Positions 10,817 to 62,644 of a DNA stretch of 64,000 nucleotides are shown here, piece by piece. Position 1 is the stretch's first letter. Each line of letters begins with the position of its first letter. This stretch comes from Squalus acanthias. Lineage: Eukaryota. Both the position numbers and the translations under genes were made by a program. The notes below the pieces were generated by a model. The model searched no databases. It had not been told where the DNA came from and worked only from the letters and a program-made list of their open reading frames with translations. The stretch lies in contig CM059431.1 of the NCBI GenBank assembly GCA_030390025.1, positions 135,410,001 to 135,474,000 of the forward strand, in the 5' to 3' direction.

Positions 10817-10854
10817 AGGAAGACTGGACTTCCAAACCTTTTAGGGAGGAAGAA

Positions 10855-11069: not shown

Positions 11070-11289
11070 AGTAGTTCTTGGATAACTGTAAGGAAAAAGC
11101 GACTAGGGAAGTGTTGTGGTGAGGGGAGAGGAGAAAGCAGGAAGTGCATGCTTTGGCGCCTTTCACCATAGGGAAGCCTGCCATGCGTGTGAAACCTGGT
11201 CCTGCTTTGCTTTGTCCATAGAGAAGGAGATTTATGTGTTTCTCCAGGTGTAGAGAGCCTCGGTGATAGATCGGTGCGATGCGAACTGG

Positions 11290-11610
11290 GATATGTCACT
11301 TATTTCACTTGCTGTGGCCTGAAAGGAGCCCATGGCACAAGAGTTAAGGGTCATGGTAACCTTGACAGCCACAGGCAGTGCTGTCCATCCCCTGGTGTGA
11401 GCCTTGAGTTATGGCTTCAGTAGGTGACATAGCTCAGGGACAGCCTCCTTGGTTGAGGTAGGAGAAGTACTCCCTGAATACTACTGTTATTATGGCCTCC
11501 TATGCAGTGCCCTCCTCCTCCCTCTTTTGGCAGCTGCTCATGCTGTCTTCCTTGCTGCTCTCCATCCTCCCCCAGCCTTGAAAATAGCCCTACCAGACCA
11601 CCCATGACAA
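11290..11610 (-). pseudogene. Inverted 5' fragment of a Harbinger transposase
   Basis: MGGLVGL... N-terminus like 4187+, and the reverse complement of cctgtggctgtcaaggttacc (PVAVKVT). Confidence 0.7.
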
Positions 11611-11952
11611 TACTTCAGCTGGAACCTAAACAGTAATTCTGGGACCACCTCAGGAGGAGGAGGAGGAGGGAGAGGAGGAGGAGGAGGACAAGAAAGAGGA
11701 CGAGGAGGTGGACGAGGAGGAAGGGAGGAGGCAGGCAGCAGATCCCCATTCCGCCCAGGCTGTCCGTGAAGGCCTCATCAGACTCCAAATCCAGTGAATG
11801 AAACCCCAGATTGTGGTTGCTCACCACATCCCCATCATACCATCCCTCTGTCACAAAATATCTCAACATCCTCCTGGGCACAAAGCTGAAATGAGAGCCA
11901 CCACAAAACAAATATTCCAAACAAAATTAATAAATTTAACACTATTCAATCA

Positions 11953-12275
11953 ACACGGTGGCATAGTGGTTAGCACTGTTACCTCACAGCGCCAGGGACC
12001 CGGATTCGAATCTGGCCTTGGGTGACTGTCTGTGTGGAGTTTGCACATTCTCCCCGTGTCTGCGTGGGTTTCCTCCGGGTGCTCCGGTTTCCTCCCACAG
12101 TCCAAAGATGTGTGGGTTAGGTTGATTTGGCTATGATAAAAAAAAAATTGACCCTTAGTGTTAGCGGGGATTAAATACGTGGGGTTATGGGGATAGGGTG
12201 GGATATGTGTCGGTGCAGGCTCGATGGGCCGAAATGGCCTCTATCTGCACTGTGGGGATTCTGTGACTTCTGTGA
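11953..12275 (+). mobile_element. HE1-like V-SINE (tRNA head, V-domain, CR1-type tail)
   Basis: A box tggcatagtgg, B box ggattcgaatc, V-domain gtctgtgtggagtttgcacattctccccgtgtctgcgtgggtttcctccgggtgctccggtttcctcccac, tail gggccgaaatggcct. Confidence 0.88.
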
Positions 12276-12289
12276 ATTACAATATGAAC

Positions 12290-14514: not shown

Positions 14515-15896
14515 TTCCAAATGCTTTTTTAATAGCTTTCTCAACTTACTCTGCCACCATCAAAGATTTTTGTATGTAGAACCCCCAGGTCTCTGTTCCT
14601 GCACCCCCTTTAAAATTGTAAAATTTTGTTTATATTGCCTCTCCTCATTCTTCCTACCAAACTGCATCACTTCAAACTTCTATGTGTTAAATATCATCTG
14701 CCATGTGTCTGCCCATTTCACCAGTCTATCTATCTCCTCCTGAAGTCTTTTACTATCTTCCTCACTGATCTAGACGAGGGAACTAGATGTAATATCTCCA
14801 AGTTTGCAGACGATACAAAGCTGGGTGGGCGTGTGTGCTGTGAGGAGGATGCAGAGAAACTCCAGTATGATTTGGATAGGTTGGGTGATTGGGCAGATGC
14901 ATGGCAGATGCAGTATAATGTGGATAAATGCGAGGTTATCCACTTTGGTGGCAAAAACAGGAAGGCAGATTATTATCTGAATGGCAAAAGATTGAGAAAA
15001 GGGGAAGTGCAACGAGACCTGGGTGTCCTTGTGCACCAGTTGCTGAAGGTAAGCATGCAGGTGCAGCAGGCGGTTAAGAAGGCAAATGGTATGTTGGCCT
15101 TCATAGCGAGAGGATTCGAGTACAGGAGCAAGGATGTCTTGCTGCAGTTGTACAGGGCCTTGGTGAGATCACACCTTGAGTATTGTGTGCAGTTTTGATC
15201 ACCTTATCTGAGGAAGGTTGTTCTTGCCATGGAGGGAGTGCAGCGAAGATTCACCAGACTAATACCTGGGATGGCAGGAATGACGTATGAAGAGAGATTG
15301 GGTCGATTGGGCTTGTATTCACTAGAGTTTAGAAGAATGAGAGGGGTTCTCATTGAAACTTATAAAATTCTAACAGGACTAGACAGACTAGATGCAGGAA
15401 GGATGTTCCCGATGGCGGGGGAGTCCAGAACCAGGGGTCACAGTCTAAGGATAAGGGGTAAGCCATTTAGGACTGAGATGAGGATGAATTTTTTCACCCA
15501 GAGAGTGGTGAACCTGTGGAATTCTCTACCACAGAAGGCAGTTGAGGCCAATTCATTAAATATATTCAAGAAGGAGTTCGATATATTTCTTAAGGCTAAA
15601 GGGATCAAGGGATATGGGGAGAAAGCAGGGACAGGGTACTGAATTTGGATGATCAGCCATGATCTCATTAAATGACGGAACAGGCTCGAGGGGCCGAATG
15701 GCCTACTCCTGCTCCTATCTTCTATGTTTCTATGTTACTACATTTCCGAAGTTTGTTTCATCTGCAAACTTTGAAATTATTCAGTGTATTGCCAAGTCCA
15801 GGTCATTAATATATATCAAAAAGAGCAATGGCTCTTAGCACCGACCCCTAGGGGACAACACTGTATACTTACCTCCAGTCTGAAAAACAACCATTC
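14515..15896 (-). mobile_element. Old CR1 fragment split by a younger CR1
   Basis: Minus-strand RT remnants at 14515-14765 and 15736-15896 (tcatctgcaaacttt = KFADE/D). Confidence 0.7.
14766..15735 (+). mobile_element. CR1 LINE 3' part (RT C-terminus and tail)
   Basis: SKFADDTKLGG...HLEYCVQF...; tail tctatgtttctatg; very similar to 27718-28633. Confidence 0.95.
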
Positions 15897-26065: not shown

Positions 26066-28633
26066 GAAATACCAAGGGGCAGAAAACGTTAGTGGGAGTG
26101 GTATACAGACCCCCAAACAGTAATGCGGAGGTTGGGGATGACATTAAAAAGGGAAATTAGAGAAGCGTGCAATAATGGCACAGCAGTTATCATGGGTGAC
26201 TTTAATTTACATATAGATTGGGCTAACCAAATTAGTAAAAGTACTGTGGAGGAGGAATTCCTGGAGTGTATACGGGATGGTTTCCTGGACCAATATGTCG
26301 AGGAACCAACTAGAGATCAGGCCATCTTAGACTGGGTATTATGTAATGAGAAAGGATTAATTAACAATCTTGTTGTGCGAGGCCCCTTGGGTCAGAGCGA
26401 TCATAATATGATAGAATTCTTCATTAAAATGGAGAGTGAAGTAGTTGACTCGGAGACTAGGGTCCTGAATTTAAATAAAGGAAACTACGATGGTATGAGG
26501 CGCGAGTTGGGTAGGATTGATTGGGGAATGTTACTCAAAGGGCTGACGGTGGATAGGCAATGGCAAACATTCAAAGATCGCATGGATGAACTGCAGAATT
26601 TGTTCATCCCTGTTTGGCATAAAAATAAAACAAAAAAGGTGACTCAACCATGGCTAACAAAGGAAATTAGGACTAGCATAAGATCCAAGGAGAGGACATA
26701 TAAATTGGCCAGAAAAAGCAGTAAACCTGAGGATTGGGAGCAGTTTAGGATTCAGCAAAGGAGGACAAAGGGATTAATTAAGAGGGGGAAAATAGAGTAT
26801 GAGAGTAAATTTGCAGGGAACATAGAAACTGACTGTAAAAGCTTTTATAGATATGTGAAGAGAAAAAGATTGGTGAAGTCAAACGTAGGTCCCTTGCAGT
26901 CAGAATCAGGGGAATTTATAATGGGGAACAAAGAAATGGCAGAGCAATTAAATACATACTTTGGTTCTGTCTTCACAAAGGAGTACATAAATAACCTCCC
27001 AGAGATGTCGGGGAACATAGGGTCTAATGAGAGGGAGGAACTGAAAGAAATCAGTATTTGTAGGGAAATGGTGTTAGCGAAATTGATGGGATTGAAGGCC
27101 GATAAATCCCCAGGGCCTGAAAATCTACATCCTAGGGTACTTAAGGAAGTGGCCCTAGAAATAGTAGATGCATTGCTGGTCATCTACCAAAATTCGATAG
27201 ATTCTGGAACAGTACCCATGGATTGGAGGGTAGCTAATGTTACCCCACTATTCAAAAATGGTGGTAGAGAGAAAACGGGGAATTATAGACCGATAAGCCT
27301 GACATCGGTAGTGGGAAAAATGCTGGAGTCCATTATAAAAGATGTAATAGCAGAGCACTTGGAAAACAGTGACAGGATCGGACAAAGCCAACATGGATTT
27401 ACAAAAGGTAAATCATGCTTCACTAATCTACTGGAATTTTTTGAAGATGTAACTGGTAAAATAGATAAGGGAGAACCAGTGGATGTGGTGTATTTGGACT
27501 TTCAGAAGGCTTTTGATAAGGTCCCGCATAACAGATTAGCATGTAAAGTTAAGGCACATGGGATTGGGGGCAAGGTATTGACTTGGATAGAGAACTGGTT
27601 GGCAGACAGAAGGCAAAGAGTTGGAATAAACGCGTCTTTTTCCGAGTGGCAGGCAGTGACTAGTGGGGTACCGCAGGGATCGGTCCTAGGACCCCAGCTG
27701 TTCACAATATACATTAATGATCTAGACGAGGGAACGAGATGTAATATCTCCAAGTTTGCAGATGACACAAAGCTGGGTGGGCGTGTGTGCTGTGAGGAGG
27801 ATGCCGAAAAACTGCAGTATGATTTGGACAGGTTGTGTGATTGGGCAGAATCATGGCAGATGCATTATAATGTGGATAAATGTGAGGTTATCCACTTTGG
27901 TGTCAAAAACGGGAAGGCAGATTATTATCTGAACGGCAATAGATTGGGAGAAGGGGAAGTGCAACGAGACCTGGGTGTCCTTGTGCACCAGTCGCCGAAG
28001 GTAAGCATGCAGTTGCAGCAGGCGGTTAAGAAGGCAAATGGTATGTTGGCCTTCGTAGCGAGAAGGTTCGAATACAGGAACAAGAATGTCTTGCTGCAGT
28101 TGTACAGGGCCTTGGTGAGACCACACCTTGAGTATTGTGTGCAGTTTTGGTCGCCTTATCTGAGGAAGGATGTTCTTGCCATGGAGGGAGTGCAGCGAAG
28201 ATTCACCAGACTGATACCTGGGATGGCAGGAATGACGTATGAGGAGAGATTGGGTTCATTGAAACTTATAAAATTCTAACAGGACTAGACAGACTAGATG
28301 CAGGAAGTATGTTCCCGATGGTCGGGGAGTCCAGAACCAGGGGTCACAGTCTAAAGAAAAGGGGCAAGCCATTTAGGACAGAGATGAGGATGAATTTCTT
28401 CACCCAGAGAGTGGTGAACCTGTGGAATTCTCTACCACAGAAGGCAGTGGAGGTCAATTCATTAAATATATTCAAGAAGGAGTTAGATATATTTCTTAAG
28501 GCTAAAGGGATATGGGGAAAAGGCAGGGACAGGGTACTGAATTTGGATGATCAGCCATGATCTCATTGAATGGCGGAGCAGGCTCGAGGGGCCGAATGGC
28601 CTACTCCTGCTCCTATCTTCTATGTTTCTATGT
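26066..28633 (+). mobile_element. CR1 LINE, 5'-truncated, with most of ORF2
   Basis: Starts in the endonuclease (VGVVYRPP), runs through RT and ends in the (tttctatg)n tail; small deletion near 28255. Confidence 0.96.
26123..28279 (+). pseudogene. CR1 ORF2 (partial endonuclease plus reverse transcriptase), 718-aa open frame
   Basis: MGDFN, SDH, KSPGP, NYRPISLTS, LDFQKAFDKVPH, GVPQGSVLGP, FADD; N-terminally truncated and C-terminally frameshifted. Confidence 0.93.
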
Positions 28634-39274: not shown

Positions 39275-41117
39275 GAAGTTTTTCCAGAATTCCTTATTGG
39301 ATTTATTAGTAACTATCTTATATTTATGGAGCCTGGTTTTGGACTCCCCACAACTGGAAACATCTTCTCTACATCTGCCCTAACGAAACCTCAATCAGGT
39401 CACCTCTCAGTCTTTTCTTTTGTAGTGAAATGAGCCCCACCCTTTTTAAATAGTAGTACCCTCTCAGTTGAGGTATGATCCTGGTAAATATGTTTTTTAT
39501 TTTATCCAGTGCTTCTATTTCCTTTTTGTATTATGGAGATCAGAACTGTGCACAGTACTCTAAGGCAGAGATTTTGCGGGGTGTCAGCGGGCATGATCGG
39601 TGGCGGGACGGGTGGGAAAATGTTTTTTTTTGACAGCGGGTCGGCATCCCTACAATGCCCAAGCCATTCCTTTCACACTCACCACCATTGTGGGGGGTAC
39701 CGTTATGTCTCACCATTCACTGCAACTCACTAAGCCACTTCCAAAGGTGCACACAAATCTGTGCAAGAACGCAAAGTGTTGAAAATAAAGGTTGCAATGT
39801 TTGACACCACATTAACAGAAACTTTACATGAACATTGCATAAAACACTCAAGTGCCTACCCTTGTGTGTTGTTAGTTGGTATGATTGGACTAGGGTGAGG
39901 GTAAGTGTGAGGGGTGGCTAGTGAGATGGGGAAGTGATAATGTAGATAGAGAGGGATGGGTGGAGGTGCAAGGTAAGTTGGTGTGAGTAAGGATGTGCAG
40001 GAGTAGGGTAGGAAAGGCAGAGTGATGGGGATGTGATGAGTGGCACGGCAGGATGAGGTTGAGTGTAGATTTGTACTAACGTTTTGTGATCTACTGTGAT
40101 CATTGAAAGGTTTGCACCACTGCAGCCTGGTCCTCCTGACAACATCCCTGCTTGTGCCCTCCTGTGCAATGCGCAACCAGGCTGCAATGGTGTCCTGGGG
40201 AGGTCTCTTCCGCCCATGGGAAGGGAAGAGATCCTCCCTGCGTGCTGTGACTCCCTCCATAAGCCTATGGAGGGAATCATGGGAGAGCCTGGGTGCAGCC
40301 ATGCACCTCTGTGCAGTGCTCGTCAGTGTTTGCAGCACCTCAATGCTGTAGAACACTGACAGCACAACTGTCAAAATCAATTTACGCATGGTCCCTTTTA
40401 AGGAAACCAGCTGATGACGCGTCATCAAATTATGTCATCAGACCCGCTTCCTTCTATTGGCCGGCAAATGCACTGGGCGGGCTTAACAAACCCAATCATG
40501 GAAAATCATTTTGGTCAGCGGGTGGAGCCGGCAGTGAGGCCGGGACCTGCCACCGACCCGCCGAGGTTGGTAAAATCAAACCCTAAGTGTGGGCTAACCA
40601 AGGTTCTGTAACATGTTAACATAACTTTTCTGCTTTTCATAGAATCATAGAATGATACAGCACAAAAGGAGGCCAATCGGCCCATTGTGCCTGTGCCAGC
40701 TTTTAGAAAGAGCTATCCAAGTATCACAGAATCATAGAATGGTTACATCATGGAAGAAAGACATTCAGCCCATCGAGCCCGTGCCGACTCTCTGCAAGAG
40801 CAGTTCAGCTAGTCCCTCGCCCCCGCCCTTTCCCCGTAGCCCTGCAAATGTTATTCTTTCAGGTGCTTATCGAACTCCCTTTTGAAAGCTGTGATTGAGT
40901 CTGCCTCCACCATCCTTTCAGGCAGTGCATTCCAGATCCTAACCACTCGCTGCGTAAACAAGTTTTTCCTCATGTCGCCATTGTTTTTTTTGCCAATCAC
41001 CTTAAATCTGTGTCCTCTGGTTCTCGACCCTTCTGCCAATGGGAACAGTCTCTCTCTATCTACCCTGTCTAGACCCCTCATGATTTTGAATACCTCTATC
41101 AAATCTCCTCTCAATCT
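39275..41117 (-). mobile_element. CR1 fragments (several stacked 3' ends)
   Basis: RGDLIEVFKIMRG...IWNALP; two consecutive (catagaat) tails at 40638-40790. Confidence 0.85.
39564..40583. mobile_element. Non-autonomous Harbinger element with a Myb/SANT exon remnant
   Basis: TSD TAA (39561-39563 / 40584-40586); removing it restores CR1 gtactctaagtgtgg; minus frame APRLSHDSLHRLMEGV...W...RTRLQWCKPFND. Confidence 0.85.
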
Positions 41118-42816
41118 TGTAAGGGGTCACGGTACTGGTGCGAGGTGAGGCCTTCGTTGCCTATACTATTGCTTGCTCTGGTCTCCGGCCAGACTTTGGC
41201 AATAAGCACCTGTGAGTGGTTCGACCCACTCGCCCTTACGGTTCTGACACCTGGACTTAGATGCAAGGAGCAGTAATGCAGAGAAAGACTCAAATAGACC
41301 CGGTTGAATAGCACGAAATGAATGTCTTTATTGCATGGCGTCTAAAATCATGAAATACATGTCATAGGTGCAGATCAAAGAGAGAACAAGTATACACACG
41401 TTCATAAAACTTGGTCTATGGAAATGAGGAACACACGACACATCGAAAAAGGGGGAACACATTATACATTAACCTTAGAAAAACCACCCTCCCTCAATAT
41501 ACCTAAACTACGTCTGGATTTGTAGGATCGGAAAACATGCTCACCACTCGGCTCACTTCGGAAATGTAAAATGAGGCACTCAGCTCGTTTCGCTGCAGCG
41601 CCTGACTGTCACGTGGTTGTAAGGGTTTCTGCACCCCACTTGTTTACTCTCGCTGCCGCGAATGGGTCTACCTGGGACGGCCCTGGTAAAGTTCATCGCG
41701 GATGGCTCAGGCTACCCGCTCAAAGAGCCGGAGGGTAAGCCAGATTCCCTGATGTCATGAAGTGGTCTATGGATTCAGACCGGATCGTGGAGTAGTCCGT
41801 AGAATTCAAAGATGGATTCTGTCGTTATATCTTCGGGCGCGGTCGGGGTTTACTGACCGCGGCGGCACGTGGAATTTCTTCTCGTCTTGCTTCTTGTTTT
41901 TCTTCTTGTTACTCGGGCCTCTGGGTCCGGACACCGTTTACCGACGCTCGGGATGGTGTACCCTGTTACCTGCCCTGTCGAGGCGGCTCGTTCCGATTGA
42001 GCTCCACCCAACACTCGAATAACCGACCAGCACAGGCGAAGAGTCAAGAGCCAAGAGAGCCCGAGAGAGTCCAGCCCGAGAGAGAGAGCCCGATTCCTCT
42101 TTTCTCCGTAACTGACTGTAACTGCTTCATCTCCAACACGTAACTGTGTCTGTGTCTGTTTCAAAACTCACTCCCGATGAACATTTGTCCTCTATAGTTA
42201 TACTGTTTTGTCTGCCTTATCCCCCGCTCAAATCAAAGTGTTTATCCTTTGTGTGATTTTGGCGCCCAAAACTCCCAGCATGGGGTGATTATCTTCTTAA
42301 CGGGTTTCGGTATCACCTGAAACTGGCCAACTATCCGTTAATACCTTCTCCATTGTTGAGCCAGCCAGGATGTGTATGAATCGTCTCCTCGACTGGTTTT
42401 GGGGCCCCCCGAATACTGGCTTAATCACCCGCCAATGTCTCTCTCATTGTTGAGCCGGGGGGGTATTTGTGTGTTGATGTGTCTGGATGGGTTCTCGATG
42501 GCCCAGTTCAATGATCCTTACTGTGCGTATGAAACGATTCCAGCACTTATATCATTGCTATTGTCCAGGATGCAAACGGGTTGCATCCTGCCTTTTCAAT
42601 GTGTACCGAGTATGATCCGATCTCATACTGAATGTGTATTTGACGCCATCTTGTCTGCCCACTGTGTCTCTGGAAGCTTCTGCCACGATGCGCGGCGGCC
42701 ATTTTACAGACTTCTGTGTCCTTTATTATCAGGACAGCATTTCGTTTAATAAAAATGATCAATCGAATCTGCTTCTCTCATGTTATTTTGAATCGCGATA
42801 ATTGCGAAACTCTACA
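41118..42816 (-). repeat. Putative 3' LTR (~1.7 kb)
   Basis: On minus: PPT (42817-42829), then TGTAGAG...CCCTTACA abutting CR1 sequence; AATAAA at 41327-41332. There is no second LTR to confirm it. Confidence 0.65.
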
Positions 42817-43211
42817 GTCCCTCCTGTTGATGCGAATAACTCCGCTTATCGTATCAATTAAATGCTGGTGAGCAAATTATCCCGATTCTCCACATCCAAA
42901 CACTCCCGGTAATTAAACTATCTATGGCCTCCATGACACATGTAGTCCTCATTTCCCAGAGAAAACACACTGTCTATCTTGGACAAATCGTAGGCAGTAT
43001 TGCCTTTAACTTACACTGCGTATTCGCCTTCCAGTTGCAAAAGGCCGATGCCTCTCGCACTACCTGTATATGCATGTTTTATTACAAAAGGAAAAACAAT
43101 TAAACCCACTGTTTAAAAAATACAAAAGTTCCAAACTTAGTCACAAATACTTATAACTACAACAATTACAGAAACACACACGGTAAAATGGAGGGGCGTC
43201 ATCCTGGCAGT

Positions 43212-45564
43212 TTACACGGTACTTTCCTCGTTCACGCGCACGTAACGCTCTCTCCACTCCCCTGTGTTCTCCTGCCTCGTGAGGCGTTTGCCTCTTTTGC
43301 AGTGCACGAACAACAGGTACACTACAATTACAACTTGACATACTACCAAAATGTGGGAGGCTATCCTGATCCATGACGGGACTTCGATATTAGTGAACAG
43401 ATCCCACCACGGTGGGGTTACTATGTCCAATATCTCTGCCCCTATCTCTGCAGTTTTCTGTTCCAGGGTGTAAAAATGTTTCTGTGATACCATGACGGCT
43501 TTTAAAATCTTGGTGAGGTGTTCAGGGAGAGGGGGAATGATGTACCCGAAATGCGTGACGAATCGCTGCAAGTCTGTGAAATTCTCTTTTACAGTGAGGT
43601 GGACGGTAGATGGTTCAGGGATTGGGACAATTCGCTGTTGTGCCACTTGAACTTCAGCCCTGGGTTTAAAACAGAAACTGCTGTCACTCACCAGACACCG
43701 GCTGTGCTGTCCATGCTGGTAGTGTTGCGCTGCAGTGGTAACGCAATACGTTCCACCCCCTATGTATGCCACCTGTGGGGGCACATGATCTTGTGTCATT
43801 GCTTCCATGGTGCAATTCATGGGCTTCGCGCCAGCCGTTCTGAACCCGCATTGTGGTATTAAAAAGGCATTCAAGTGCTGGGGACACAGTATGATGTGTG
43901 CTCCCCTGCTACGACAACCCGAGAGGTCGGTACCTGTCATCGTTTGCTCCCAGCGAATGACGTAAGGTGGGACCGCTGCGTAGCGAATGTGGGCTCCCCC
44001 CTGAATGACTCCAATGTTCTCCACCCTGTACACCGGGGCGGGCTTTGCTGTGTCGCCCAACACCGGCATCCGTACTACTATACCCATGATAGTGTGATTT
44101 GACTGTCCGCAGTCCACTGGGACTGGGTATGCCTCTGAGACTAGCCTGAGCTGGCACGGGCTTAATGCGTTCTGAAAAGGGTGGAGCGCCTGCAGGTGTT
44201 TGTTGCTTATCCAGGACGGGACCGAACCTTGTTTTAAATCCTCCAAATTACTGCGGCCCTCGCCCAGTAACCACGCCCCGTATAGTACGCACACCTCGTT
44301 CTGCGCAGCTTGATCGGATGCATTTCGATCTTCCCTGATCAGGGCATTTACCGTTCTCGCATGTTTCTCCAGCTCTGCTATAATCTCTTTTAAGTGTAGT
44401 GTCATGGCCTGGTCCTCATGTAACTCAGACCCTACTACCTTGTTCTCGTTTGTGAGGATGCTTTTTAACTGTGTCTTTAAACCGTTGATCTGTGTCTGCA
44501 GGTCCACATTATCTAGAGCGTTGACCACAGATGTTCCCGTATTAAAAGCAGTGAACACATCGTTCACAGCACCCCTTCTTTGCCTCCCCACCTGACCCAA
44601 AACTTCGTGTGGTGTGGTGTATAAGCCTGTTTTGTCAACCTCTGCAAAATCAAACTCATAAAACTGCCTGAACATGTTTGTTCACAGGACCTGGTACAAT
44701 TTTTCCGTTTCTTTGGGGCACCACTCTGGTAAATGCACCTCGGTGAGATTTAGAATCACCGAGGCCACCGCGTAATGTACCCCCTGATACAGTATCTGTT
44801 CCGTTGGCACCAGTACCAGACCATTCCCGGGCCCCTTAGTGGTTTTAGGGCACCCTTCCTCCTGAGCCAATGCCACCGGAATCGTGGGCGGAGACTTGCG
44901 TGGGCGCGTGATGAGTTCAGTGGCGTTTACCGGGATCGGGGAGAATGGAGCTCCGCACCCCCGGGAGCTGACGTCCCACCTCATCCCTTTCCCGGCATCC
45001 TGCCACTGTTGTAGGAAAAATATGGATATACCCTTGGGGCAAACGTACGTCGATCCCCACATACAAACATATATTCCCTCATCCGGCTCCCACCATTTGT
45101 CCCAACAGACGCTCAATTGTCCGTTAGTCCCCGTAATTGTCCGATGGGTATTGTTACCCAATCGCTCCCACTCGACCGAGGAATTTCTCATAGTCTTGCT
45201 TAACTTCCATAACCACCACCATCGGCTCAATGGGCCGTTCCCATTGCACACCAAACAAATCCTTTTGCCGACGGTGACGCTGATTCTGGGTGCAACGATC
45301 TTCACCCTGGGACACAGTCAAAGAAGTCTCTTGGTACGCAAACCCGGATGCGCTGGAGTATTCCGTTGAATTCGTTCCCAGCCATCCCGGCCACCTTCCC
45401 TTGTGGAAATAAGTGGCGGTTTCCTCAGCGTTTCGCTCCCCGGTCCCATCCGTCGCGATGGGGGCCGTGTCCCTGGAGCAACCGAACACAACGACATCCT
45501 TGGTGAGGCCCCGATAGGCCAATCCACATCCGATCGTTGCGAGCACCACCAGAATCCTTTCCAT
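43212..45564 (-). pseudogene. env: Env: signal peptide, Ig domain, F2-like region, furin site, F1-like ectodomain, TM; 1 frameshift and 1 stop
   Basis: MERILVVLATIGCGLA; C..W..DEGIYVC; RQRR at 44574-44585, then GAVNDVFTAFNTG, a long heptad, a Cys-rich region, a second heptad, PWW and a hydrophobic TM. TGA at 44682-44684 is in frame; an acceptor-like ttttatctgatcacag lies 12 nt before the ATG. Confidence 0.88.
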
Positions 45565-45837
45565 ATCTCCTGGTTCCTGTGATCAGATAAAATGATGTAG
45601 CCAGCCTCCCAAGAGTCTCTGGCTTTTGTGAAGGGTGAGCGGGTCCCTTGACCTCGGCTCACGTACAAGACATGTATACTGGATAGACCTTAACTGTTCC
45701 TATCACTAACTCCCATCATTTTACCATTTACTTATGAAATTAAACTACAATCTTAACCTGATAATTAAAACACTATAAACTTAAACTTATCCTCCTAAAA
45801 TAACTGTACAGTGCCGCCCGTTCCCAGGGCGGCCTAG

Positions 45838-46834
45838 CTAAATCCTGAAAAGGCTGCCACGAGCTGTTTCCCGTGGCGGGGGGGCACTGACCCTTGTCTT
45901 TGATCTGCCGCAGCCTGTCGCTGCCGAGCGGGGACTGGGACCTCCCTGGGCTGCCTTGGACTTACGCCTGGGGGTGTACGAGGGATCTGGCCACAACTTC
46001 CTGGGCTGGGACGTCCGACTCGACCTGCGGAGGGCCACCTTGGGCAAGGTCTCCAGGGCCGACGGACCGGGGACCGGGACTTCCACCGTCACAGCCTGTG
46101 GTCCCACCACAGCTGCCGGCTCTGTCTCCCCTGGCTCCGCCCCCCTGGGCTCGGGATCTGCGGTTTCCGACTCCACCCTACTTGTTTCTCCAGTAGGTGG
46201 ATCTCCACTCACAATCCCTACCTCCCCTATGCTTGGGTCGAGGGCGGAACCTCCGTCCTAACCACCTCTCCGACCGGGTCACTAACTTGGTTGTGCCCTC
46301 CGAGCTCTTCCTCATCTGAATCCCAAGAAAAAGAAAAGATCCTACACTTCTCCAGAATGTCCTCTCCCCTCACGCAGGCTGCTTTACCGGCCTGTGTGCC
46401 CTGCGGTTCTACCCGGGGCTGAGAGTCCCCACTCGCAGGTTTGGCCCCTCCCCTAAGACAGGCCACCGCCCCTGCTTGTGCATTCTGTGTAATCTCGCCT
46501 GCTGGAGGCTGAAGATTTCTATTCTGTTTTAGTTTGGGCAACTCTGCTACCATGGCTTGCAACTGCAGGGTGGTGAATTCCCCCGGGGTTGTTGAGCAAA
46601 CCATCCCTCTGGCTTTGGATAGGGCTTGGGTCAGACCTTTTATCCTTTCCTCACAGGGCCCGTGGTTTAAATCCTCATACTCCCTGCTCCTGGCTACCCT
46701 GTAGCTGCCTTTATGTCTCTAAGCTGCCCTTCTAGCTCGTCTACTTTCCCCATTAAGCGGGCGTTCTCCTCCCGCAAGGCCTGCTCTTTTAACCTGGCCT
46801 CCTTACAGGAGGCCCCCTCCTGTGCGTGTCTTTC
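45838..46834 (-). pseudogene. Accessory ORF, paralogue of the Gag coiled-coil region, frameshifted
   Basis: 25/69 identical residues in an ungapped hand alignment to the element's own Gag; low-complexity C-terminal part ending LRRSSRTSQPRKLWPDPSY... Confidence 0.75.
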
Positions 46835-46870
46835 AAGGGGACACAGGTAGGCAAGCTGCACCGGTTCCAG

Positions 46871-48424
46871 TCAGAAGTCTGGGTTGTATGGGGCTGTTGC
46901 TACCTTCGCGTGTGAGGTCATGAGAGACCGCATGGCTCCTAACATGGACTCTATCGCATCGGGATGGATAGGCACACCAGCTCCTCTCTCAGAGACAGGC
47001 GTTTGGGCTCGGACTGCGGGAGCTTTTTCCCTGGAGTCCTTCCAGGGATTCCTACAGTTTTTGCGCCAGTGACCTGCCTTCCCGCACCCGTAACAAACAC
47101 TATTGGTTTGTGGGGCGCGATTTCCCTCCTGATGCCACTCTTTCTGAGCCGGAGCTGCGGGCTTTGCTTCATGCACTTTTCCCTTAAGGGGACGCGCTCC
47201 CGTGCTTCTAGTGTTCCGATACCCTATGGTGAGGTGACTCAGGACAGACTCCTCCGTTGTCTCGGGGTTGGTGGGATCAAACCACGCTCTGGCCTGCTCC
47301 CTGACGGCTGGCAAGCTGTTGGCCACTATGCACCTGAGCCAATGAGCTTTCCCGGCACCGTCCAGGTAGCGGCGCTCTGGCGCACCTGGGCATCTACGCT
47401 GGTATACTGGCCACAGTCTTTCGGCGAAAACCCGTGGGGGTTCTCCCTCTATCTGCACGGTCTGACCCAGTCTGACGAACGGACCTTCGTCATCCACCCC
47501 TAACACTTCTTGGACCTCGTCTCGTAAATCCCCATAGCCCTTAGCTCCCCTCTTGGTCTCGTCGGAGAGACACTGAAGGATTGAGCTATCTAAAGAGAAC
47601 AGCAACATCTTGGTCTTTTCCTCGTTGTCGCAGCCATTAATCGCTGCGGTCTGTTCTACTTCTCTAAAATGCACGGAAGGGTCTCCTGACTCGGACAGCT
47701 TCCGGACATGGCTGATCATTGCCCTCAGCTGCTGTGAGCTGTGGGGCACTACAAGTTGGTTCAGGATGTCCCCGTCTTCCCCATTGTTCCCATTCGGGCC
47801 TCGCTTATGACCTCGGACCGGACACATCGGTCCCGGTCTCGACACTACCTCCGGGGATTGTCCTACCTCGGGAACCTTCTTCTCTATTTCCACCACTTCC
47901 TCCCTTACCCAGGTTTCTGTATAGCTGGGTGGCGCGGAGGGCTTGGTGGTAGATACCACATCTGCTTTTCCCGGTAGGGATTTTGGGAATTCCCTACCTA
48001 CCTGTGGCTGGCTCGCTGATGGGCTGATGAGACACACCAAGCCGTTTGCCTTATTCAGGGCCTCTCTCAGGTTCTCTATCTCCCTCTGGCAAACACTGTG
48101 GTCGGCTCCCTCATGCCTATCCTCGAGAGCCATCTTGTATGCCACCCTAACTCCCCTCAAACTTTCTTCTTGGGCCTTTATCTGGTTAGCTAGGCGGATA
48201 CACCGTTCTTTAATCCTTCCCTCACTTAATTTTGCTTCCGTGACCTGACATTCTAAGTAATCGATCCTAGCCTCGTGGTGGTTGGCTATTATTTGGCGTT
48301 CCTGATGCAACGCATTCAGTGATACAATCAGTCTCTGTCCTCCCGTAACCTTTTCCTCCATCTCTGTTTCTAATTCTCTGATCTGAGCTGCCATGACCTG
48401 GTCCGAAAGTTGGACTTGCTTCTT
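46871..48424 (-). CDS. gag: Retroviral Gag (N-terminally truncated; open frame continuous with the Penelope RT fragment up to 49210)
   Basis: Coiled coil, PSAPPSY late domains, QIEGEPPRVFAERL MHR-like segment, CYGCGKAGHWRKNC knuckle, TGA stop. Confidence 0.88.
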   Translation of the reverse strand, partial: KKQVQLSDQVMAAQIRELETEMEEKVTGGQRLIVSLNALHQERQIIANHHEARIDYLECQVTEAKLSEGRIKERCIRLANQIKAQEESLRGVRVAYKMALEDRHEGADHSVCQREIENLREALNKANGLVCLISPSASQPQVGREFPKSLPGKADVVSTTKPSAPPSYTETWVREEVVEIEKKVPEVGQSPEVVSRPGPMCPVRGHKRGPNGNNGEDGDILNQLVVPHSSQQLRAMISHVRKLSESGDPSVHFREVEQTAAINGCDNEEKTKMLLFSLDSSILQCLSDETKRGAKGYGDLRDEVQEVLGVDDEGPFVRLGQTVQIEGEPPRVFAERLWPVYQRRCPGAPERRYLDGAGKAHWLRCIVANSLPAVREQARAWFDPTNPETTEESVLSHLTIGYRNTRSTGARPLKGKVHEAKPAAPAQKEWHQEGNRAPQTNSVCYGCGKAGHWRKNCRNPWKDSREKAPAVRAQTPVSERGAGVPIHPDAIESMLGAMRSLMTSHAKVATAPYNPDF

Positions 48425-50210
48425 GTTGTTCAATGTGAGAACAAGTTCAGCCAGGTGGAGGAGGGTGGTGGTGGATGGGGTCTGGTTGGGCCTCTGTTCA
48501 AGGAAGAAGCGGAGCGACTTCAGGCCATCCTGGTGGGGGATGGAGGTATAGAGGGATTGTACGCCCATAGTGAAAAGGAGGCGGTCAGGGCCAGGAAATT
48601 GGAAACTGTTAAAGTGGCGGAGGGCGTCGGAAGAGTCGCGGATGTAGGTGGGAAGAGACTGGACAAGGGGAGAAAAAATAGAGTCGAGATAGGAAGAGAT
48701 AAGTTCCGTGGGGCAAGTACAGGCTGAAACGATGGGTCTACCAGGGCAGTCCTGTTTGTGGATCTTGGGAAGGAGGTAGAAGCGGGCTGTGCGGGGTTGG
48801 GGAACTATGAGGTTGGCGGCCGTGGGGGGAAGATCTCCAGAGGAGATGAGGTCAGTGACAGTCTTGGAAACGGTGGCTTGATGTTCGGTCGTGGGGTTAT
48901 GGTCCAGGCAGAGGTAGGAGGTGTCGGAGAGTTGGCGTTCAGCTTCCGCTAGGTAGAGGTCGGTTCGCCAAACAACAAAAGCACCACCCTTGTCAGCAGG
49001 TTTAATGACAATGTCGGGGTTGGATCTGAGAGAATGGAGTGCTGCAAGTTCAGAGGGAGGAAGGTTGGAGTGAGTGAGGGGAGCAGAGAAATGGAGACGG
49101 CCGATGTCACGCCGGCAGTTTGCAATGAAAAGATCTAGAGAGGGTAAGAGGCCAGAGGGAGGGGTCCAGGTAGAACGAGAATTCTGAAAGCGGGAGAAAA
49201 GGTCAGCCATGCGGGGGGAAGACTCCTGGCCAAAGAAGTGGGCACGGAGGCGAAGGCGGCGGAAAAAGAGCTCAGCATCGTGCCGAGCTCGAAATTCATT
49301 GAGGTGGGGGCGTAAGGGGATGAAGCTCAGGCCTTTGCTAAGGACTGATCGTGCGGGGTCAGAGAGGGGAAGGTCAGAGGGGATCGTGAAAACGCGGCAG
49401 GGGGTGAGATTGGGAGAAGGGATGGGTCAGAGGAAAGTGAAGGGGAAGAAGGTTCCGGAGGTGCGTTGGTGTCCAAGAGTTGTTGAAGCTTGCGATCCTT
49501 GCCACCTGAAAGGAAGAAAAAAAGTTTTTTGTTAACGCGCCAGATGAGGCGAAGGATGAAATGGAACTGCGAATCAGGACGGCTTTGAGATAGAGTGAGT
49601 CGGTGCTGCTGAAGAGAGAGGTCGAGAGTGTTCATGTGGCATTGCATGGCATTCAGCGTGGATCTCAGGATGCGGCGAGAGCAGTGGTTCGAGGAACGCT
49701 GAATATCTTGGAGATATCTGTAGTCCTGGGTGGATCCAAAACACGAAGGGTGAATTTCAGTTGGAATCCACGTGGAGTAAGTCGGAGCCGGAGACAGTTG
49801 CTGAGGAAAGATATGTGGCTGTGAAAGCGAGTTTTGGTAGATCCTGATCAAACACGAGAAGGAGACAGAAAGCAATGAAGATGAACAAGGTAAAAGAGAC
49901 AAACGGAAATCCCGTCGAAGAGAAGAGCAGAACTTCTTCAAGGTGGGCATTCCTGGAAGAGAGGTGGCAGTGAATAAACACTAATACAAAAAGAAAATAC
50001 TGCAGATGCTGGAAATCTGAAATAAAAACAGAAAATGCTGGAAATACTCAGCAGGCCAGGCAGCATCTGTGGAGAGAGAAACAGAGTTAACGTTTCAGGT
50101 CGATGACCTTTCGTCAGAACTGGAAAAAAGCAGGAAATGGAACAGATTTTTAAGCAAGTGTAGTGGCTGGGAAATGGGGGAGGGGATGAAAGAACAAAAG
50201 GGAAGGCCTA
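48425..50210 (-). mobile_element. Penelope-like element, 5' half (pseudo-LTR, N-terminal region, RT N-terminal part)
   Basis: Highly similar to 60826-61933 over the shared part; IKPADKGG, YLLPKIHK, GRPIVS; breaks at LTLNN. Confidence 0.93.
50085..50121 (-). ncRNA. Minimal type I hammerhead ribozyme (Penelope pLTR)
   Basis: agtt-CUGACGA-a-aggtc/atc/gacct-GAAA-cgtt-aact: core boxes, stem II, palindromic stem III, stem I agtt/aact. Confidence 0.85.
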
Positions 50211-53559: not shown

Positions 53560-55143
53560 TTAAGGGGTTTAGCAGCTTTAACAGTGGATAAATCCCCAGG
53601 CCCGGATGAAATGTGTCCCAGGCTGTTAAGCGAAGCAAAAGAGGAAATAGCAGAGGCCCTGACCATCATTTTCTAATCTGCTCTGGCTTCAGGTGTGGTG
53701 CCGGAGGACTGGAGGACTGCTAATGTGGTACCCTTGTTTAAAAAGGGAGAAAAGGATAGACGAGTAATTACAGGCCAGTCAGCCTAACCTCGGTGGTGGG
53801 AAAATTATTGGAAAGAATTCTGAAGGACAGGATAAATCTTAATTTAGAAAGACACGGATTAATCAAGGATAGTCAGCACGGATTTGTTAAGGGAAGGTCG
53901 TGTCTGACAAACTTGATTGAATTTTTTGAGGAGGTAACAAGGAGGGTAGATGAAGGTAGTGCATTTGATGTAGTGTATATGGACTTTAGCAAGGCTTTTG
54001 ATAAGATTCCACATGGCAGACTGGTCACGAAGTTAAAAACCCATGGGATCCAGGGCAAAGTGTCAAGTTGGATTCAAAACTGGCTCGGAGACAGGAAGCA
54101 GAGGGTAATGGTTGATGGGTGTTTTTGTGACTGGAAGGCTGTTTCCAGTGGGGTTCCGCAGGGCTCAGTACTAGGTCCCTTGCTTTTTGTGGTATATATC
54201 AATGATCTAGACTTGAATATAGGGGGTATGATTAAGAAGTTTGCAGATGATACTAAAATCGGCTGTGTGGTTGATACTGAAGAAGGAAGCTGTAAACTGC
54301 AGGAAGATATCAATAAATTGGTCAGGTGGGCAGAACAGTGGCAAATGGAATTCAATCCGGAGAAGTGTGAGGTAATGCATTTGGGGAGGGCTAACAAGGA
54401 AAGGGAATGCACATTAAATGGTAGGACACGGAGTAGTGTAGAGGAACAAAGGGACCTTGGAGTGCATGTCCACAGATCCCTGAAGGTAGCAGGCCAGGTA
54501 GATAAGGTGGTTAAGAAGGCATACGGAATGCTTGACTTTATTAGCCGTGGCATAGAATACAAGAGCAGGGGGGTTATGCTTCAACTGTATAAAACACAAG
54601 TTAGGCCTCAGCAGTTCTGGTCACCACATTACAGGAAAGATGTGATTGCACTAGAGAGGGTACAGAGGAGATTTACAAGGATGTTGCCAGGAGTAGAGAA
54701 TCTTAGCTATGAGGAAAGATTGGATAGGTTGGGTTTGTTTTCCTTGGAACAGAGGAGGCTGAGGGGAGACCTTATTGAGGTGTATAAAATTATGAGGGGC
54801 CTAGATAAAGTGGATAGAAAGGACCTATTTCCCTTAGCAGAGGGGTCAAAAACCAGGGGCCACAGATTTAAAGTAATTGGGGGAAGGTTTAGAGGGTATT
54901 TGAGGGGAAATTTCTTCACCCAGAGGGTTGTGAGGGTCTGGAACTCACTGCCTGAAAGGGTGGTAGAGGCAGAAACCCTAACCACATTTAAAAAGTACTT
55001 GGATGTGCACTTGGGATGCTGTAACCTGCAGGTCTATGGACCTAGAGCTGGGAAGTGGGATTAGGCTGGATAGCTCTTTGTTGGCCGGCGCGGACACGAT
55101 GGGCCGAAATGGCCTCCTTCCGTGCTGTAACTTTGTATGATTC
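53560..55143 (+). mobile_element. CR1 LINE, 5'-truncated (423-aa RT frame 53793-55064)
   Basis: MDFSKAFDKIPH, GVPQGSVLGP, FADD, CR1 C-terminus and tail. Confidence 0.95.
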
Positions 55144-59603: not shown

Positions 59604-61271
59604 TTATGATCTAAAATTGTTGAACTCGATATTGAGTCCAGAGGGCTGTAGCGTGCCTAAACGAAAGATGAGGTGCTGTTCCTCGAGCTTACGCTGCGCT
59701 TCCGTGAAACAGTGTAATAGGCCGAGGACGGTGAGGTCAGAGTGGGAGTGAAGCGGTGAATTAAAGTGACAGGCCACCGGGAGCTCGGGGTCCCCCTTAC
59801 GGACTGAACGGAGGTGTTCCGCAAAGCGGTCACCCAATCTGCGTTTGGTCTCCCCAATGTAGAGGAGACCACATCGTGAGCAGCGAATACAGTATACTAA
59901 ATTGCAGGAAGTACAAGTAAATCGCTGTTTCACCTGGAAGGGGTGTTTGGGGCCCTGGACAGTGGGAAGAGGGGAGGTGTAAGGGCATGTGTTGCATCTC
60001 CTGCGCGTGCACGGGAAGGTGCCGGGCGAAGGGGAAGGGGTGCTGGGGGTGGTAGAGGAGTGGACTAGGGTGTCGCGGAGGGAGCGGTCCCTGCGGAATG
60101 CTGAAAGGGGAGGTGAGGGGAAGATGTGTTTGGTGGTGGGATCACGCTGGAGGTGGCGGAAATGGCGGAGGATGATCCGTTGAATGTGGAGGCTGGTGGG
60201 GTGAAAGGTGAGGACAAGGGGAACCCTATCGTGGTTCCGGGAGGGAGGGGCAGGGGTGAGGGCAGAAGTGCGGGAGATAGAACGGACACGGTCGAGGGCC
60301 GTGTCGACCACGGTAGAGGGGAATCCTCGGTTGAGGAAAAAGGAAGACATGTCGGAAGCACTGGTATGGAAGGTGGCATCATCAGAGCAGATGCGGCGGA
60401 GACGGAGAAACTGGGAGAATGGAATAGAGTCCTTACAGGAGGCGGGGTGGGAGGAAGTGTAGTCCAGGTAGCTGTGGGAGTCAGTGGGCTTGTAGTGAAT
60501 GTTAGTCAAAAACCTATCCCCAGAGATGGAGATGGAGAAGTCGAGGAAGGGAAGGGAAGAGTCGGAGATGGACCATGTGAAGGTGAGGGAAGGGTGGAAA
60601 TTGGAAGTATAGTGAATGAAATGTTCTAGTTCAGGGCGAGAGCAGGAGACGGCACCGATACAGTCATCAATGTACCGGAAAAAGAGGTGAGGGAGGGGAC
60701 CCGAGTAGGACTGGAACAAAGAGTGTTCCACATATCCCACGAAAAGGCAGGCATAGCTAGGACCCATGCGGGTACCCATAGCAACACCTTTAATTTGGAG
60801 GAAATGGGTAGAGTCAAAGGAGAAGTTGTTCAATGTGAGAACAAGTTCAGCCAGGCGGAGGAGGGTGGTGGTGGATGGGGACTGGTTGGGCCTCTGTTCA
60901 AGGAAGAAGCGGAGCGCCCTCAGGCCATCCTGGTGGGGAATGGAGGTGTAGAGGGATTGTACGTCCATAGTGAAGAGGAGACGGTTGGGGCCGGGAAACT
61001 GGAAACTGTTAAAATGGCGGAGGGCATCGGAAGAGTCGCGGATGTAGTTGGGAAGAGACTGGACAAGGGGAGAAAAAATAGAGTCGAGATAGGAAGAGAT
61101 AAGTTCCGTGGGGCAAGAACAGGCTGAAACGATGGGTCTACCGGGGCAGTCCTGTTTGTGGATCTTGGGAAGGAGGTAGAAGCGGGCTGTGCGCGGTTGG
61201 GGAACTATGAGGTTGGCGGCCGTGGGGGGAAGATCTCCAGAGGAGATGAGGTCAGTGACGGTCTTGGACAC
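59604..61271 (-). CDS. Penelope RT plus GIY-YIG endonuclease (555-aa open frame, N-terminally incomplete)
   Basis: TMDVQSLYT, GVAMG, RYIDD, FLD, linker CTRRRCNTC, VYCIRC..C.LLYIGET.R.L..RF.EH, E, GLN. Confidence 0.92.
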   Translation of the reverse strand: MSKTVTDLISSGDLPPTAANLIVPQPRTARFYLLPKIHKQDCPGRPIVSACSCPTELISSYLDSIFSPLVQSLPNYIRDSSDALRHFNSFQFPGPNRLLFTMDVQSLYTSIPHQDGLRALRFFLEQRPNQSPSTTTLLRLAELVLTLNNFSFDSTHFLQIKGVAMGTRMGPSYACLFVGYVEHSLFQSYSGPLPHLFFRYIDDCIGAVSCSRPELEHFIHYTSNFHPSLTFTWSISDSSLPFLDFSISISGDRFLTNIHYKPTDSHSYLDYTSSHPASCKDSIPFSQFLRLRRICSDDATFHTSASDMSSFFLNRGFPSTVVDTALDRVRSISRTSALTPAPPSRNHDRVPLVLTFHPTSLHIQRIILRHFRHLQRDPTTKHIFPSPPLSAFRRDRSLRDTLVHSSTTPSTPSPSPGTFPCTRRRCNTCPYTSPLPTVQGPKHPFQVKQRFTCTSCNLVYCIRCSRCGLLYIGETKRRLGDRFAEHLRSVRKGDPELPVACHFNSPLHSHSDLTVLGLLHCFTEAQRKLEEQHLIFRLGTLQPSGLNIEFNNFRS

Positions 61272-62644
61272 GGTGGCTTGATGTTCAGTAGTGGGGTCAT
61301 GGTCCAGGTGGAGGTAGGAGGAGGTGTCAGAGAGTTGGCGTTCAACTTCCGCTAGGTAGAGGTCGGTTCGCTAAACAACAACAGCGCCACCCTTGTCAGC
61401 AGGTTTAATGACAATGTCAGGATTGGATCGGAGAGAATGGAGTGCTGCAAGTTCAGAGGGAGGTAGGTTGGAGTGAGTGAGGGGAGCAGAGAAATTGAGC
61501 TGGCCGATGTCACGGCAGCAGTTAGCAATGAAAAGATCTAGAGAGGGTAAGAGGCCAGAGGGAGGGGTCCAGGTGGAACGAGAATTCTGAAAGCAGGAGA
61601 AAGGGTCAGCCGTGTGGGGGGAAGACTCCTGGCCAGAGAAGTGGGCACGGAGACGGAGGCGGCGGAAAAAGAGCTCAGCATCGTGCCGAGCTCAAAATTC
61701 ATTGAGATGGGGGCGTAAGGGGATGAAGGTCAGGCCTTTGCTGAGGACTGATCGTTCGGAGTCAGAGAGGGGAAGGTCAGAGGGGATAGTGAAAACGCGG
61801 CAGGGGGTGAGATTGGGAGAAGGGGGGTCAGAGGAAAGTGAAGGGGAAGAAGGTTCCGGAGGGGCGTTAGTGTCCAAGAGTTGTTGAAGCTTGCGATCCT
61901 TGACATCGGAAAGGAAGAAGAAAAGTTTTTTGTTGTCTTTTCTTAAGTATGGACACCAAAACTGTATGCAGTATTCCAGATGCGGTCTCACCAATACCTT
62001 ATATAACTGCAGCAATACCTCCCTGTTTTTATAATCTATCCCCTAGCAATAAAAGCCAACATTCCGTTGGCCTTCTTGATCACCTGCTGCACCTGCATAC
62101 TAACTTTTTGATTTTCTTGCACTAGGACCCCCAGATCCCTTTGTACTGCAGTACTTTCCAGTTTCTCGCCATTAAGATAATAACTTGCTCTCTGATTTTT
62201 CCTGCCAAAAAACAGCGCAGTACCCTCTACAGGGCATCTGGGATGTAAGTGAACAGGATAAGCAACTGTGTATCTCCTTAACCAATCAGATTGAAGGATC
62301 ATGAAATTAACAGCGCAAGGTCTGTGTGAGTTAGAATGGTGAATTCAATGTCAAATCAGGTACAGAAAGAGAAATAAAGAGAGCGAAAGAAAGATTGGAT
62401 TAAGGAGAGAGAGAAAAAAGAAACAAAAAGATAAAGTAAAAAAAAAATTGTTTTAATTGTTTAAAAAAAAACTCAAACCACAATTAAAACCTGAAGGAAT
62501 GAGACTTTACAATTGTAACAGTTAATTTTCAATGGCAGAGAGGTTGACTGGCAGTAATTAACACTTATCACATCATTAAAAGTGTTTTTGATGAGTAATG
62601 ACTAGAATAAACTTCTTGTTGCGAGTTTAGTTCTTATCTACTGT

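Follow-up and report, generated by a model that had tools for sequence, protein, structure and literature searches.

In a 64,000-nucleotide stretch of the genome of the shark Squalus acanthias (assembly GCA_030390025.1, contig CM059431.1, positions 135,410,001 to 135,474,000; hereafter the window), a reading frame resembling part of Gag lies on the minus strand between the gag and env genes of an endogenous retrovirus (ERV). Is this frame, found at positions 45838 to 46870, an accessory gene that arose when the element's gag was duplicated within the genome long ago, as an earlier note made from the sequence alone had proposed, or does it have a different history? The gag-derived segment does lie where the note had placed it, and it does comprise a coiled coil and a capsid start. 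The window ERV is a decayed, 5′-truncated copy of a ~9.1 kb long terminal repeat (LTR) element with the organization gag-TGA-ORF2-env, and the open reading frame following gag (ORF2, 346 aa when intact) is a leftover pol reading frame in three parts, one of them gag-like. We consider it probable that the window represents a non-autonomous, pol-deleted subfamily of an elasmobranch ERV family (family A), in which ORF2 is a vestigial recombinant pol frame and its gag-like domain most likely a passenger.

A pol-deleted ERV subfamily

Between its gag and env, the window copy carries no pol. A search of the 3.7-Gb assembly with the 1033-nt stretch covering ORF2, in which 40 of 2486 first-look candidates were scored, returned at least 51 matches among the matches listed, with 92-100% identity and on many contigs. 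Three copies fetched with their flanks have the structure LTR (1.6 kb)-gag-ORF2-env-LTR, are ~9.07 kb long and lack pol; the LTR pairs of these copies are 98.2-98.8% identical. In the intact copy L027, gag encodes 599 aa, env 783 aa and ORF2 346 aa from stop to stop (307 from the first ATG). Two sets of copies were analyzed. Set 1 consists of 20 copies selected by similarity in the ORF2 region itself, and in 11 of them ORF2 is a single open frame of 346-369 aa located directly after the gag stop and in the frame of gag. Set 2 consists of 30 loci drawn, regardless of ORF2, with the spacer between ORF2 (or pol) and env as a query; it includes 17 pol-less loci, 12 loci of the full-length type and one locus truncated inside ORF2.

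The full-length family A element of the same genome is ~12.4 kb long and has the organization LTR-gag-TGA-pro-pol-env-LTR. Its Pro-Pol, a 1437-aa open frame in one copy, contains the Pfam domains RVP, RVT_1, RT_RNaseH_2, RNase_H, Integrase_H2C2, rve and an SH3-like domain, and among proteins of solved structure Pol is best matched by Ty3, the reverse transcriptase (RT) of XMRV/MLV and the foamy virus PR-RT, all far above HIV. Positions 70-3439 of L027 correspond to 1740-5126 of the full-length element (94% identity, reaching the last ~12 gag codons) and positions 3897-9136 to 8881-14100 (95% identity); the ~460 nt between these two blocks have no DNA counterpart in the full-length element. Thus, ~3.75 kb, extending from the last gag codons to just past the SH3-like domain of the integrase, is replaced by a patch of ~460 nt. 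In all 17 pol-less loci of set 2 the homology with the full-length element stops at 5114-5126 and resumes at 8880/8881, which shows that they descend from one recombinant. The pol-less form has the hallmarks of a deletion derivative, its flanks being 94-95% identical to a pol-bearing family of the same genome with the 3.75 kb replaced, and also those of amplification after the deletion, since copies are found in many places with the same breakpoints and, in the three fetched copies, with their own LTR pairs. Its abundance is close to that of the full-length form, judging by 1720 first-look candidates for the patch as a query and 1689 for a pol segment. On the env side, the pol-less loci of set 2 are 95.2-98.1% identical to a full-length copy and 93.8-97.3% identical to another pol-less copy, which is compatible with a recent split of the two forms or with continuing recombination between them.

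Composition of ORF2

ORF2 is composed of 12 residues of the protease start, a gag-like patch of ~128 residues and the last ~206 residues of Pol. In the window, where all features of the ERV are on the minus strand, residues 1-12 (LEPVQ.AYLCPL; 46835..46870) are identified as a remnant of the protease N-terminus by comparison with the full-length element ('LEHAQPVYLCPL') and with a second ERV family, B ('REPAQPVYLCS'), and the remnant is identical to positions 5186-5239 of the full-length element in 10 of 18 residues (tblastn). Residues 13-141 (46450..46834) constitute the patch, presumably captured, which displays homology to Gag and has no DNA match in the full-length element; alignment with Gag divides it into a coiled coil (~46584-46801) and a helix resembling the capsid start (~46450-46583). 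Residues 141-346 together with the stop codon (45838..46449) are the C-terminal tail of Pol that follows the SH3-like domain, in the frame of Pol, with position 8881 of the full-length element corresponding to window position 46449. In the four full-length loci that were translated, the integrase frame continues without interruption through 'GAKPASGDSQPRVEPQG...' and terminates at the stop codon that also ends ORF2, and the Pfam domain SH3_Tf2-1 ends at residue 1223 of the 1437 Pol residues. What had been described in the earlier note as a low-complexity basic tail ending a Gag paralog is thus the disordered tail of the Pol integrase. In 12 of 12 loci of the full-length type the patch is absent and pol is collinear with the full-length element into the tail; the translated full-length material comprises four of these loci and three longer stretches, one of which overlaps a locus of the 12. 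The patch therefore occurs only in the pol-deleted form, in place of pol, which speaks against the proposed accessory gene between pol and env.

In the window copy, ORF2 is split into three frames after the gag TGA (46694-46870, 46227-46718 and 45838-46257, minus strand). Compared with a natural intact copy there are two breaks, a 1-nt deletion at ~46704 and a 7-nt deletion at ~46260, each found in none of the 18 other aligned copies. The former is the frameshift that the earlier note had correctly placed near 46705 in reading its frames; the latter, which it had overlooked, accounts for the change of frame before the basic tail.

No Pfam family was detected for ORF2, a protein-database search returned no homologs at E≤0.01 among proteins of 190-606 aa, and residues 1-141 had none at E≤1 among longer annotated proteins. 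AlphaFold2 models of ORF2 from seven natural copies have a mean pLDDT of 38, a confidence insufficient for fold searching, with helices at residues 22-60, 63-69, 72-92 and 101-119 and a mostly unstructured tail, and the predicted complex of the Gag coil with the ORF2 patch has a score of 0.02.

Homology of the patch to Gag

The segment had been noted to align with Gag without gaps, and this proved correct. In the intact copy L027, ORF2 and its own Gag are identical in 27 of 73 residues of an ungapped alignment (BLASTP, E = 3e-12). The N-terminal part of the window ORF2, with X at the break, likewise aligns without gaps over 73 residues with the window Gag, with a Smith-Waterman score of 126. 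In the shuffling test that the note had called for, none of 2000 composition-preserving shuffles reached this score (mean 35.5, standard deviation 5.3; z = 17), so the resemblance is significant. Of the two window pieces taken separately, the second matches the window Gag in 15 of 41 residues (E = 9e-8, composition-adjusted BLASTP), and the first alone has no significant match (E = 1.6 in BLASTP) because the break splits the alignment. A tblastn search of the full-length element and the window with the patch missed the Gag coil, and the homology statistics rest on BLASTP and shuffles rather than on tblastn.

The homology of the coils is collinear and includes the Y[RK]xA, HxxC and GxVC motifs. 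The resemblance to the capsid start, also claimed in the note, depends on the Gag chosen for comparison: it is collinear, with 10 of 14 residues identical, for the Gag of a relative (P0006), but weak for the element's own Gag, with 6 of 16 residues identical and 66 of 2000 shuffles scoring as well. As the note had stated, the late-domain linker is skipped and the rest of the capsid and the nucleocapsid zinc knuckle are lacking: the coil is joined directly to the first ~40 capsid residues, which are followed by the Pol tail.

Origin of the patch

A HMMER search of 1.84 billion representative sequences with Gag collected 32 relatives, including a catshark protein and a whale shark gene model. 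A genome search with one of these Gag relatives revealed that this genome also harbors family B, in which gag, TGA and pro are likewise in one frame and whose Gag has 43-44% identity to that of family A. Family B is represented by the records L084, L085 and L086 (C20:65965667-65967460 and C9:121722827-121724760); the catshark-lineage Gag query had 9869 first-look candidates, of which 70 were scored. The whale shark gene model (P0031) joins a Gag coil (residues 2-73) to an Env N-terminus (residues 107-199; 35/96 identical to the Env described here, E = 4e-17); it represents a further gag-env derivative without pol, from another shark species, or else an artifact of gene modeling.

Across 74 columns of the coil alignment, the patch shares 38 residues with family B Gag, 33 of 73 with the catshark protein and only 27-28 with its own Gag; the Gags of families A and B have 33-34 in common. 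BLASTP ranks the matches in the same way, with family B Gag (38/74, E = 2.5e-21) ahead of the catshark protein P0016 (E = 3e-15) and the element's own Gag (29/81, E = 6e-12). In the maximum likelihood tree, the element's own Gag groups with P0007, a Gag of another data set, with support of 100/99, and the ORF2 patch falls outside, although on a long branch. Forcing the patch and its own Gag into one clade costs 26.5 log-likelihood units and is rejected by the approximately unbiased (AU) test (p = 0.0004), whereas a clade of the patch with family B Gag is not rejected (AU p = 0.27). Moreover, where gag ends in the pol-less form ('GKVAT...'), its final codons are closer to family B than to full-length family A, so the foreign stretch may begin already there.

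These results make it extremely unlikely that the element duplicated its own gag long ago, the origin put forward in the earlier note, and that the copy then decayed. Such a duplication would account for the ungapped, collinear match to the element's own Gag coil, but it would leave unexplained the absence of the patch from every full-length locus and its greater closeness to family B Gag, besides the rejected topology. Moreover, the patch is only 36% identical to its own Gag at the protein level, yet its flanks are just ~5% diverged from the full-length element, and it can therefore be no recent copy of that Gag. The closer relationship to family B, together with the rejection of the own-Gag clade, points instead to capture from another lineage, and the simplest reading is that the donor was another ERV lineage related to family B. 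The gag of a second ERV having recombined in is one of the outcomes that the note had named as contradicting its proposal. In substance this is what the comparisons suggest, except that the event would not be confined to this locus, being ancestral to the subfamily.

The gag stop codon and presumed read-through

The stop codon of gag is TGA in all 17 pol-less loci of set 2, and ORF2 follows in the frame of gag. Similarly, gag and pro-pol are in one frame with a single stop between them in three of three full-length family A copies and in family B, an arrangement that suggests expression of Pro-Pol by stop-codon read-through. Approximately 38 nt following the stop are conserved at the DNA level between the pol-less form, full-length family A and family B, in spite of Gags that are only ~44% identical; this stretch (L027 3472-3510, L058 5183-5221 and L086 19-57) is a candidate read-through signal. 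In the window the TGA is at 46871-46873, and together with the conserved context, presumably that of read-through, it spans 46833..46873. UGA followed by C is known to be leaky. Folding predictions returned no stable RNA structure downstream of the stop, single-sequence folds without pseudoknots being no better than those of shuffled sequences (z = -1.2, +1.3 and +1.4).

Since ORF2 occupies the place and frame of pol behind this TGA, any translation of it would be expected to yield a read-through fusion of Gag and ORF2. The first ATG of ORF2 is codon 40, inside the homologous coil, and homology to Gag begins 16 residues upstream of it; a protein started there would therefore be missing part of the coil. 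Contigs from four runs, of a kind that could only be guessed, bridge the junction of patch and tail at 3897; no splice joint from the leader to env or from the leader to ORF2 was readable in them.

Selection on gag, env and ORF2

The ratio of nonsynonymous to synonymous substitution rates (dN/dS), calculated pairwise with misaligned flanks masked, is low for gag (0.31, interval 0.24-0.39) and env (0.30, 0.23-0.43) of the 20 copies of set 1. For ORF2 of the same copies it is 0.84 (0.61-1.17), with 0.70 and 0.72 in the two other frames of ORF2. The tail has a ratio of 1.12 in the 17 pol-less copies and of 0.96 in full-length copies. Counts of distinct variants relative to a natural copy, likewise from the 20 copies, agree with these values. 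The synonymous share is 0.418 in gag versus 0.295 expected (P = 7e-8; 0.53 among shared variants, P = 2e-10) and 0.442 in env versus 0.313 expected (P = 7e-5), but 0.304 in ORF2 versus 0.307 expected (P = 0.56; 0.302 among shared variants). Among the distinct variants of the patch in 52 copies, 37 of 145 are synonymous, which represents no excess over the expected share of 0.283. The dN/dS test suggested in the note thus yields strong constraint on gag and env, and it detected no purifying selection on the amino acids of ORF2 as a whole. In our reading, the amino acid sequence of ORF2 is free to drift.

Possible explanations for ORF2

The pol-less form was most likely generated by template switches between co-packaged RNAs. 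The recombinant keeps the gag stop, its ~38-nt context and the first 12 protease codons, continues into a presumably foreign gag fragment consisting of the coiled coil and, without the linker, the first ~40 capsid residues, and rejoins the frame of Pol at the C-terminal tail of the integrase. It has retained its own gag and env under purifying selection, and presumably borrows Pol in trans from full-length copies; helper Pol is suggested by the absence of pol together with the abundance of full-length copies and their open Pro-Pol. Given the apparently neutral amino acid change in ORF2, its gag-like part has most likely been carried along as a passenger and does not serve as an accessory protein.

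Several observations weigh against this interpretation. In the 17 pol-less copies picked regardless of ORF2, dN/dS is 0.42 (0.21-0.86) for the patch and 0.23 (0.08-0.58) for the coil. Stop-creating variants in the frame of ORF2 are scarce both in the patch (1 versus 5.4 expected, p = 0.027) and in the whole ORF2 (2 versus 7.2 expected, p = 0.023; 0 versus 2.9 among shared variants), two tests that overlap in data, while the off-frames have about as many as expected. An uninterrupted patch is found in 44 of 53 copies and an uninterrupted ORF2 in 11 of 20 and 8 of 17, and no frameshift in the patch was seen in more than one copy. An in-frame tandem duplication of 69 nt, which adds 23 residues to the coil, is present in 21 of 53 copies and triplicated in one, two of the 21 carriers having a private frameshift in the duplication as well. 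Furthermore, pairwise dN/dS pools pairs that are not independent, ~50 copies were read of more than 1000 candidates, and the donor lineage was not found, as a DNA search with the patch, in which 40 of 1720 candidates were scored, returned only copies of the family at 96-100% identity. The 69-nt duplication is located at ORF2 nt ~112 (L018, L020, L029, L033 and others, with L049 noted alongside) and is perfect in several copies.

The scarcity of stops in frame 0 only, the low dN/dS of the coil in one set, the mostly open patch and the in-frame lengthening of the coil, together with the maintenance of the gag frame behind the conserved TGA context, would be expected if ORF2 were a working protein. 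Either a Gag-ORF2 fusion or the product of the codon-40 ATG could enter or disturb Gag assemblies through the captured coil. Its target could be the Gag of the element itself, of the helper or of the donor, and the outcome would be either improved packaging of the pol-less element or impairment of a rival ERV. There is a precedent in the mouse IAP 1-delta-1, where the fusion protein of a deletion derivative acts in cis (PMC6466679). Even so, we regard a working ORF2 as unlikely, though by no means negligibly so. ORF2 has no synonymous excess, unlike gag and env of the same copies, and once 52 copies are included dN/dS rises to 0.64 (0.33-1.29) in the patch and to 0.505 (0.22-1.20) in the coil, with an interval that includes 1. 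The tail is neutral in both forms, the free-standing product would miss part of the coil, and the searches returned neither a Pfam family nor a homologous annotated protein. The scarcity of stops and the in-frame duplications of the coil give a small chance that the protein matters, and weak selection may keep the frame of ORF2 open. The most far-reaching form of this idea, in which a pol-less parasite ERV carries the Gag oligomerization domain of a rival lineage as a Gag-ORF2 fusion that hijacks or poisons the particles of others, and in which a large sub-lineage has lengthened the foreign coil by the 23-residue duplications, seems to us quite unlikely.

Alternatively, the patch might act as RNA, providing a packaging or dimerization signal in cis that comes from the donor gag and allows co-packaging by helper particles. 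Retroviral packaging signals do extend into gag, and the patch, with 66 distinct variants in 423 nt, is less variable per nucleotide than the adjacent tail, which has 174 in 615 nt, and than gag, which has 409 in 1497 nt, without an amino acid signature of constraint. However, variant density is similarly low in env (206 in 1185 nt), so the difference is not specific to the patch; patch and tail have practically the same dS (0.043 versus 0.044), and set 1 was selected by similarity in this very region. An RNA role is accordingly very unlikely in our estimation, and a passenger domain in a vestigial pol frame remains the explanation we favor.

The window copy and its surroundings

Homology to the ERV begins at window position 48426, and positions 1910-8181 of L027 correspond to window 48426-42174 with 95.4% identity; the 5′ LTR is missing. 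The gag gene (46874..48426, minus strand) is truncated at the 5′ end, starting from ~codon 79 of 599, and is open to its stop; it encodes the coiled coil, the capsid and one CCHC knuckle (zf-CCHC, E = 0.0021). The env gene (43212..45564, minus strand) is broken into the reading frames 45154..45582, 44682..45317 and 43212..44681; the breaks comprise one or more frameshifts and, at 44682-44684, a stop codon in frame. Intact env copies encode 783 aa with a signal peptide, an RQRR cleavage site and a membrane anchor. Env has no Pfam family (at E≤1 for the window pieces and E≤0.01 for intact env) and no sequence match in the PDB. Annotated proteins related to it are limited to two (P0004 and P0005), one from a skate, named 'uncharacterized protein' (78% identical), and one from a sawshark, named 'Niban 1-like' (60% identical over 32% of the query); the latter looks like the model of a host gene into which ERV env sequence has been drawn. 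The 3′ LTR (41110..42819, minus strand) corresponds to LTR segments of L027 at window 42819-42174, 42067-41788 and 41662-41129.

Upstream of gag, positions 48427..49426 (minus strand) encode the N-terminal part of the RT reading frame of a Penelope-like element, which matches the frame at 59604..61370 up to '...LTLNN', where gag begins. The minus-strand stop-to-stop frame 46871-49426 (851 aa) accordingly starts as Penelope-like RT and continues as Gag from 48426, the RT and the truncated gag happening to share a frame where they meet. As the ERV copy keeps its whole 3′ LTR, this joint looks like the result of a deletion or rearrangement. The two Penelope-like copies of the window, 48427-49426 and 59604-61370, are both on the minus strand, and the second has an open RT and GIY-YIG frame of 588 aa. 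The window as a whole is a dense mosaic of retroelements. It includes a Ty3/gypsy-type retrotransposon, unrelated to the ERV, with an open gag-pol frame of 1315 aa (6869-10816, plus strand) in which CCHC, protease, RT and integrase motifs were recognized by eye, and RT frames of long interspersed nuclear elements at 26093-28279, 53760-55064 and 14614-15642 (all on the plus strand), which appear CR1/L2-like by eye and one of which is open over 728 aa.

Significance and comparison with known systems

Non-autonomous deletion derivatives of ERVs are already known; what is unusual here is the captured gag fragment. No description of a pol-less gag-ORF2-env architecture was found in the open-access literature, and helper-dependent ERVs that retain both gag and env have been little described. 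In practical terms, the 346-aa frame should be annotated as a chimeric delta-pol frame and not as a new gene. What looked like a new retroviral accessory gene is thereby documented as the product of recombination between ERVs. A single recombinant that lost pol and gained a piece of gag presumably from another lineage, with gag and env under selection and an abundance close to that of its presumed helper, offers a clean system for studying competition between a pol-less element and its helper. If the patch was captured as we suggest, it also records RNA exchange between heterologous ERV lineages in the same cells. Should the parasite scenario outlined above be true, this would be a mobile element armed with the assembly domain of a competitor.

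Gamma- and epsilonretroviruses produce Gag-Pro-Pol by read-through of a stop codon. Family A resembles them in having gag and pro-pol in one frame separated by one stop, which is here TGA and has no stable structure predicted downstream. Fv1 and enJS56A1 are gag-derived interference genes, in which a gag fragment acts on the capsid assembly of another virus, and the parasite scenario would work in a similar way. Both are host-fixed single loci under selection, whereas ORF2 is part of a multicopy mobile element and its amino acids change apparently neutrally.

The lokiretroviruses of fish and amphibians (Wang and Han 2020; PMC7947760) are comparable ERVs: they have the organization gag-pol-env, a tether and RNase H, and an unusual Env, not of the gamma type, with a furin site, and some possess an extra coiled-coil-like gene called 'smc'. 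The word 'shark' occurs nowhere in the text of that paper (PMC7947760). The Env described here has no Pfam match to PF00523 (paramyxovirus F), the family to which lokiretrovirus Env would be expected to show similarity, and, with neither a Pfam nor a PDB match, Env lends no sequence support to membership in the lokiretroviruses.

The nearest analog is the mouse element IAP 1-delta-1 (I-delta-1), a common, internally deleted, non-autonomous ERV with a high copy number and a new fusion frame that was likewise made by a deletion, and which obtains its proteins in trans from full-length copies (PMC6466679). The IAP deletion removes part of gag and pol in an element that has no env, whereas the shark element has complete gag and env genes, both under selection, and has lost almost its entire pro-pol; in addition, a foreign gag fragment presumably fills the gap, unlike in IAP 1-delta-1. 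The IAP fusion protein has been demonstrated to act in cis (PMC6466679); a comparable action of ORF2 would be hypothetical. ETn/MusD and VL30/MLV are further pairs in which a non-autonomous LTR element was amplified with proteins supplied by autonomous relatives residing in the same genome (PMC6466679). ETn and VL30 are essentially non-coding, whereas the pol-less element of Squalus acanthias keeps two constrained genes and lacks only pol.

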